DNA of 64,000 nucleotides from NCBI RefSeq assembly GCF_054482595.1, contig NZ_CM137008.1. The stretch is one strand, 5' to 3'. Under the pieces are notes generated by a model. The model worked only from the letters and a program-made list of their open reading frames with translations, searched no databases and was not told where the DNA came from. Of the stretch, positions 50,617-50,883 are shown in pieces. The first letter of the stretch is position 1. Every line of letters begins with the position of its first letter. The position numbers and the translations under genes are program-made.

Positions 50617-50620
<4 letters not shown>

Positions 50621-50883
50621 AAGAGTTTTTATTTTTATTTCACTCCACGGTCGGCGTCATACAAACCCGCAAGGCATTGCAGGCAGCGGGCATGACTTTT
50701 CGCGTCAGCGATATTCCCCGTGATTTACGCGGCGGCTGCGGGTTATGCATTTGGCTGACCTGTCCCCCCGGCGAGGAAATACAATGGGTGATCCCTGGGC
50801 AAACCGAAGCGATATATTGCCAGCAGGGCAGCGACTGGCAGTGCGTGGTGCATTACGATGCAGAAGCGTCAACCAGGCAATAG
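50617..50883 (+). CDS. small hypothetical protein, translationally coupled to yjiL
   Basis: 88-aa ORF; ATG overlaps the yjiL TGA (ATGA); Cys-containing motifs GGCGLC and CPPGEE. Confidence 0.5.

Follow-up and report, generated by a model that had tools for sequence, protein, structure and literature searches.

The Escherichia coli gene ytiA encodes a DUF3343-family protein and overlaps yjiL in a conserved yjiM-yjiL-ytiA gene order

The region described here lies within a window of 64,000 nucleotides, in which yjiN, yjiM, yjiL and ytiA follow one another on the plus strand. The first of these, yjiN (47296..48576), encodes a DUF445 protein according to RefSeq, and locus comparison shows that it is kept as the upstream neighbor in Citrobacter, Klebsiella and Kosakonia; yjiM occupies 48692..49843, yjiL 49853..50620 and ytiA 50617..50883. 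Between yjiN and yjiM the window holds only a 115-nt gap (48577-48691), whereas a 79-aa DUF2164 gene is located just 5' of yjiM in Citrobacter (L003:3740-3979) and Klebsiella (L004:3739-3978). In the ORF listing of the window, ytiA starts with ATG and runs for 88 codons on the plus strand. The junction with yjiL reads ...AAA CGC CGA TGA AAG..., with the ytiA ATG at 50617 and the yjiL TGA stop at 50618-50620, generating a 4-nt ATGA start/stop overlap (50617..50620, plus strand) with the geometry of translational coupling. The original prediction, made from the DNA alone, had described this ORF accurately, as its coordinates, its length of 88 aa, the ATGA overlap and the positions of two Cys-containing motifs were all confirmed. 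Its remark that this site lacks an annotated gene in K-12 is wrong: the counterpart in K-12 MG1655 is ytiA (b4715, YP_009518833.1), which encodes 85 aa and likewise overlaps yjiL by 4 nt, and RefSeq E. coli genomes also carry the gene under the product name "DUF3343 domain-containing protein" or "putative Se/S carrier protein". When the region was compared by megablast with 5426 complete E. coli genomes, ytiA turned up in 5385 of them, and a CDS is annotated at its position, mostly named ytiA, in each of 60 genomes sampled across the whole ranking.

A Pfam profile search assigns YtiA to PF11823 (Se_S_carrier, formerly DUF3343) with 49.2 bits against a gathering cutoff of 25 (E=3.6e-13), aligning residues 4-59 with profile positions 2-57 of 69. 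This is its sole Pfam match at E<=1, and no NCBIfam model matches it. The size of YtiA (88 aa in the window, 85 aa in K-12 and 78-91 aa among orthologues) fits the members of this family, a typical DUF3343 protein being a single domain of about 80-100 aa (PMC5322559); besides the above-threshold score and the single-domain size, YtiA shares with the family described by Lin et al. 2015 (PMC5322559) a conserved Cys. The earlier guess of a DUF3343 or small sulfur-carrier-like protein was thus correct. Homologues (54-90% identity) were found in Citrobacter, Klebsiella, Raoultella, Kosakonia, Atlantibacter and Phytobacter. Among 23 orthologues, Nei-Gojobori dN/dS for pairs with estimable dS, many of them saturated at synonymous sites, is 0.06-0.25 for ytiA, 0.05-0.15 for yjiL and 0.04-0.08 for yjiM; the ytiA frame is under purifying selection, looser than that on yjiL and yjiM. 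Indeed, ytiA evolves faster than its neighbors, with a dN 2-4 times that of yjiL, and its C-terminal third varies among E. coli haplotypes, as might be expected of a spurious or non-functional ORF persisting by chance 3' of yjiL. This explanation is effectively excluded by the PF11823 match, by dN/dS values well below 1, by the CDS annotated throughout the 60 sampled E. coli genomes, and by the finding that all 25 gammaproteobacterial species sampled keep ytiA intact, with its start at a conserved place. Taken together, ytiA is a genuine protein-coding gene of the DUF3343/PF11823 family, already annotated and not new. Literature searches on ytiA returned mostly the Bacillus gene of that name (rpmEB) and no functional or expression study in E. 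coli; the yjiL literature deals with the yjiL-mdtM region and proline-rich peptides and contains nothing on ytiA, and no experimental study of any DUF3343 member was found.

The two partners encoded upstream, YjiM and YjiL, fit the description of an ATP-dependent low-potential reductase better than that of a 2-hydroxyacyl-CoA dehydratase, the label that the original prediction had attached to YjiM. On the NCBIfam model NF040772 ("double-cubane-cluster-containing anaerobic reductase"), YjiM scores 532.1 bits against a cutoff of 350, and it also matches PF06050. It is 39% identical (E=4e-75) to the solved double-cubane protein from Carboxydothermus (6ENO/7YYL), and its Cys40, 59, 78, 93, 108, 273, 302, 304 and 335 all align, nine of nine, with Cys residues of 6ENO. 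Jeoung, Martins and Dobbek, in their review (PMC7317905), place YjiM/YjiL among the putative class II double-cubane systems, without a known substrate, and count YjiM among the proteins sharing a seven-Cys motif. We prefer the reductase label because of the NF040772 score, the identity to 6ENO with its aligned Cys residues, and this listing; YjiM is accordingly a homologue of the double-cubane [8Fe-9S]-cluster-type anaerobic reductases. YjiL (255-257 aa) is, as anticipated, a BcrAD/BadFG-type ATPase of the acyl-CoA dehydratase activase/DCCP-reductase type, matching PF01869 with E=1e-75 and TIGR00241 with 361.6 bits against a curated cutoff of 125.4. Database product names disagree on this pair: the K-12 record (L001) calls YjiM a "putative dehydratase subunit" (8700-9851) and YjiL an "activator of (R)-hydroxyglutaryl-CoA dehydratase" (7923-8690), whereas PGAP records (L002) name YjiM "double-cubane-cluster-containing anaerobic reductase".

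The order HGD-D, BcrAD, Se_S_carrier is common to Citrobacter amalonaticus, Klebsiella pneumoniae and Kosakonia, although the flanking genes differ. Because the YjiM homologue matches listed were only 85-100% identical and nearly all from Enterobacteriaceae, we carried out a wider scan of one genome per GTDB species using patterns conserved between YjiM and 6ENO, seeded with 6ENO residues 62-421 rebuilt from the HMMER alignment, and kept the best 80 loci (58-96% identity to YjiM), comprising 25 gammaproteobacterial and 55 Firmicute loci. Among these best 80, a DUF3343 gene lies directly 3' of yjiL in all 25 gammaproteobacterial YjiM loci, which come from Escherichia, Citrobacter, Klebsiella, Raoultella, Superficieibacter, Trabulsiella, Cedecea, Intestinirhabdus, Kosakonia, Kluyvera, Hafnia, Morganella and Aeromonas. 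The junction was measured in 24 of them, omitting one locus (L019) in which ytiA is intact; the overlap is 4 nt (ATGA or GTGA) in 19/24, 1 nt in 4/24 and 11 nt in 1/24. A GGAG-like Shine-Dalgarno sequence is present within the 3' end of yjiL in many ytiA orthologues, and around ytiA neither an intrinsic terminator nor a promoter signal rises above background. The yjiL-ytiA overlap, kept across genera at every measured junction as the suggested gene-neighborhood check had asked, is therefore a conserved property of the operon, and the strict gene order supports the earlier proposal of an accessory to the yjiM-yjiL pair. The best explanation of this arrangement is that ytiA is the third, probably translationally coupled gene of a yjiM-yjiL-ytiA unit. 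The Carboxydothermus hydrogenoformans DCCP/DCCP-R system (6ENO, 7YYL; PMC7317905, PMC9351452), whose two components are homologous to YjiM and YjiL, is presented as a two-component system in the searched sections of the review (PMC7317905), where no third gene is mentioned. The sampled gammaproteobacteria differ in having a third gene, for a small Cys protein whose start overlaps the end of the ATPase gene.

YtiA contains Cys residues at positions 41, 44, 49, 68 and 76, the first three of which fall in GGCGLC (residues 39-44) and CPPGEE (residues 49-54), the two motifs that had been taken as hints of a small redox or metal-binding accessory. Across the orthologues aligned within the YtiA subfamily, Cys41 never varies and Cys44 does so only rarely. 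A wider search found 121 YtiA relatives among 1.84 billion cluster representatives, and when 27 distant full-length relatives (18-40% identity) were aligned with YtiA, only Phe8, Pro34 and Cys41 are invariant in the 28 sequences, with position 44 being Cys in 16. Cys41 (codon 50737..50739, plus strand) is thus the family's single invariant Cys, already remarked upon in PMC5322559, and the proposed site of S/Se attachment; Pro34 (codon 50716..50718, plus strand) is likewise invariant across the family. Cys44 (codon 50746..50748, plus strand) is conserved in Enterobacteriaceae only and not family-wide, and Cys49 is absent from the wider family, so these two are lineage-specific additions of the YtiA subfamily. 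Of the two motifs, then, GGCGLC holds what the alignments point to as the family's single essential Cys, whereas CPPGEE appears to be lineage noise. No selenocysteine codon (in-frame TGA) was found at the conserved Cys in any of the fetched loci.

This distribution bears on the possibility of YtiA acting as a small accessory with a CxxC thiol-disulfide or metal/Fe-S site, passing electrons to YjiL or holding a metal via Cys41, Cys44 and Cys49. The C41-x-x-C44 pair is indeed kept within Enterobacteriaceae, many of which also possess Cys49. However, Cys44 is replaced by A, S or G in the Aeromonas, Hafnia and Morganella orthologues, where the gene order is unchanged; it is missing from 12 of the 28 aligned family members and from every one of 118 related domains fused to HydE (described below). 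E or G takes the place of Cys49 in Klebsiella pneumoniae, Kosakonia and others, and YtiA matches none of the thioredoxin, ferredoxin and metallochaperone families. A CxxC pair is therefore unlikely to be the core mechanism, and we regard an accessory of this type as improbable.

Searches of the PDB with YtiA and with the 28-member family profile returned nothing meaningful, indicating that YtiA has no solved relative. Its closest structural neighbors are PII/GlnK, CutA and ACT-type ferredoxin-like domains, to which the similarity is weak, and its conserved loop between strands 2 and 3 corresponds in position to the T-loop of PII. YtiA may thus fold into a small ferredoxin-like beta-alpha-beta domain, in which Cys41 would sit at the end of the loop that starts after the invariant Pro34. 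The same neighbors and the same loop position could be read as signs that YtiA is a regulatory subunit of the PII/ACT type, binding a small ligand and tuning the ATPase activity of YjiL or the activity of YjiM, a role we consider very improbable given how weak the fold similarity is.

A functional comparison may be drawn with TusA and YedF (SirA-like), which resemble YtiA in being small single-domain alpha/beta proteins with one essential Cys, and which, like DUF3343 genes, adjoin desulfurases and YedE; by analogy, a persulfide relay of the TusA/YedF kind is plausible for YtiA. As for membership of the TusA family itself, the active Cys of TusA lies within a conserved CPxP motif. YtiA has no such motif, its sole Cys-Pro being the non-conserved C49-P-P-G, and no match to PF01206; hhalign against YedF gave a probability of 20% and did not align the TusA domain, and the TusA-type two-layer alpha/beta fold was not recognized in YtiA.

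DUF3343 genes only distantly related to ytiA are found in sulfur and selenium contexts. We observed them beside a gene for a YedF-like protein (TusA+DsrE), beside a YedE-like transporter (Sulf_transp) together with a class-V aminotransferase and a LysR regulator, and overlapping a class-V aminotransferase gene beside a TusA protein gene. These neighborhoods agree with the proposal of Lin et al. 2015 that DUF3343 is a Se/S chaperone whose members often adjoin or overlap S/Se metabolism genes (PMC5322559). In the STRING table for Slackia from the same study, an activase, two DUF3343 genes, a Sec-lyase-family gene, YedF and an HGD subunit carry consecutive locus tags (PMC5322559). Kayrouz et al. 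report duf3343 as one of the five most frequent genes to overlap selD (bioRxiv 10.1101/2022.04.13.486033), and a preprint by Haft finds 955 of 970 NF040772 proteins in SelD-containing genomes, with DUF3343 going unmentioned (bioRxiv 10.1101/2022.07.06.499078). The enterobacterial and Aeromonas YtiA subfamily differs from the rest of the family in being tied to yjiL and yjiM, whereas other DUF3343 genes are tied to yedF, yedE, Sec lyase and selD.

Within 5 kb of YjiM, 8 of the 55 Firmicute loci contain a DUF3343 gene and 47 do not, and no small unrecognized ORF follows the activase in the latter; for two loci (L069 and L090), the DUF3343 coordinates were taken from HMM hits, as the greedy ORF filter had picked shadow ORFs. 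At roughly 1-3 DUF3343 genes per genome, we would expect fewer than one such co-location by chance in 55 loci. After clustering, the recurrent non-housekeeping neighbors are a TIGR01977 cysteine-desulfurase-family gene (9 loci), DUF3343 (8), YedF TIGR03527 (5) and the selenium-dependent xanthine dehydrogenase TIGR03311 (3). The second-best match of the TIGR01977 desulfurases by Firmicute YjiM is the selenocysteine lyase SclA, and such a desulfurase is present in seven of the eight DUF3343 loci. A Lachnospiraceae MAG (L089) shows the order DUF3343, desulfurase, YedF, DCCP paralogue, DUF3343, activase, YjiM, and two Dorea genomes (L077 and L083) the order desulfurase, DCCP paralogue, DUF3343, activase. 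S/Se genes are thus enriched around YjiM orthologues. In these three genomes, DUF3343 is positioned between the DCCP paralogue and the activase and not 3' of the activase, and the paralogue beside the YjiM orthologue is a second, longer one of 423-453 aa (L077:2241-3560, L083:2015-3373 and L089:2637-3905). The TIGR03311 xanthine dehydrogenase (1550 bits) accompanies YjiM-YjiL in Enterococcus (L055 and L068) and in one further Firmicute locus (L061); in Enterococcus its gene starts 85-113 nt after yjiL (L055:about 7020-9600; L068:7017-9590), with a MocA-type cytidylyltransferase nearby. These loci are a further selenium link for the YjiM-type reductase family.

Another context of DUF3343 is a fusion. 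In Acetoanaerobium (L040:8199-9488, minus strand), the domain forms the N-terminus of a 430-aa radical-SAM protein whose gene adjoins HydF and HydG-like genes (L040:6998-8194 and L040:9500-10870). PF11823 occurs together with PF04055 (Radical_SAM) in 119 of the best 120 homologue clusters of this fusion, many of them named HydE, and in the HydE-fused domains the equivalents of Pro34 and Cys41 are invariant (118/118), while position 44 is never Cys. We found no mention of a DUF3343-HydE fusion in the literature searched. The N-terminal domain of clostridial HydE, the [FeFe]-hydrogenase H-cluster maturase, thus carries the same domain and Pro...Cys signature as YtiA, yet it is fused instead of free-standing, and its partner is a radical-SAM enzyme instead of a double-cubane reductase. 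The HydE substrate is a cysteine-bound Fe(CO)2(CN) complex and the product is [Fe2(mu-SH)2(CO)4(CN)2] (PMC12752695), so that here DUF3343 is again attached to an Fe-S enzyme handling a cysteine-tethered species.

The link to an H-cluster maturase raises the question of whether YtiA might be a maturation or repair factor for YjiM, with Cys41 donating sulfide (e.g., the bridging sulfide of the [8Fe-9S] cluster) or holding a cluster fragment. The conserved fusion speaks for this role, as do the dedicated desulfurase-family genes beside DUF3343 and DCCP genes in seven Firmicute loci; it would parallel dedicated NifS/NifU-type systems, and Haft has suggested a possible role of S/Se in the cofactor itself (bioRxiv 10.1101/2022.07.06.499078). 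However, most Firmicute YjiM orthologues have no adjacent DUF3343 gene, and a gene translationally coupled 1:1 would more typically encode a working partner, a catalytic assembly factor being less expected there. Moreover, because the HydE substrate is itself Cys-bound, the fusion fits a substrate carrier equally well. A maturation role, which the fusion and the desulfurase genes suit as well as they do the carrier reading favored below, is the main alternative, but we consider it rather unlikely.

The reading we favor, to which we assign a probability of roughly 45%, is that YtiA is a single-cysteine carrier of sulfur or selenium, or of another Cys-bound adduct, serving YjiM/YjiL. In such a scheme, Cys41 would bear covalent sulfur or selenium (a persulfide or perselenide) or some other adduct, and YtiA, presumably in contact with its partners, would hand the tethered atom to the cluster site of YjiM or take one from there. 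YjiL would act as the ATP-hydrolysing electron injector for YjiM, and the resulting ATP-energised low-potential electrons might act on a protein-bound S/Se species. The carrier chemistry, the contact between YtiA and YjiM/YjiL, and the choice of sulfur or selenium as the carried atom are each suggested by the residues, gene order and neighbors described above. A more specific proposal, in which yjiM-yjiL-ytiA would form an ATP-driven module dedicated to mobilising selenium (or sulfur) and YjiM would reduce Cys41-bound Se/S at a very low potential, e.g., Se(0) or perselenide to selenide for SelD, seems to us unlikely. If it were true, it would provide the first physiological substrate for double-cubane proteins and a specific selenium-delivery route for E. 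coli.

As a member of a known family, ytiA itself is not news, and the interest lies in how strictly it is coupled to a double-cubane reductase and in an S/Se neighborhood that crosses phyla. Double-cubane [8Fe-9S] reductases have no known physiological substrate, and a route that brings selenium specifically to SelD is still missing. In both Firmicutes and Slackia, YjiM/YjiL-type genes cluster with a Sec-lyase-like desulfurase and YedF, and in Firmicutes also with the selenium-dependent xanthine dehydrogenase. The coupling of YtiA to the reductase is a useful, testable lead rather than a discovery, and ytiA of E. coli K-12 offers a cheap and testable way into the double-cubane/selenium question.

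Within E. coli, ytiA contains a haplotype breakpoint that affects codons 62-88 (about 50800-50883) and the downstream sequence. Residues 1-61 of YtiA are identical to those of K-12, and the C-terminal third is diverged and, in the window, 3 aa longer. Nucleotide identity to K-12 is 98.6% for yjiM, 97.9% for yjiL, 88% for ytiA and 78% for yjiK, and in most E. coli genomes the megablast alignments of ytiA end at nt 211. In the GTDB "E. coli" representative SCPM-O-B-8794 (L012), dS relative to the window is about 0.38-0.47 across yjiM, yjiL and ytiA, an unusually large distance within a single named species; the variable yjiS-yjiT/restriction-system region lies next to this locus. Right at the ytiA stop a low-GC island begins (50884-53700), with 29-35% GC compared with about 54% in yjiM-ytiA. 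It contains an ORF at 51196-53523 (plus strand) for a 775-aa pentapeptide-repeat protein, which RefSeq annotates as the T3SS effector EspX6 and which has the internal repeats KD, PATPAT and DSTDKQAN. In K-12, ytiA and yjiK are adjacent genes, and the island arrangement is shared by only about 635-644 of the 5426 E. coli genomes.
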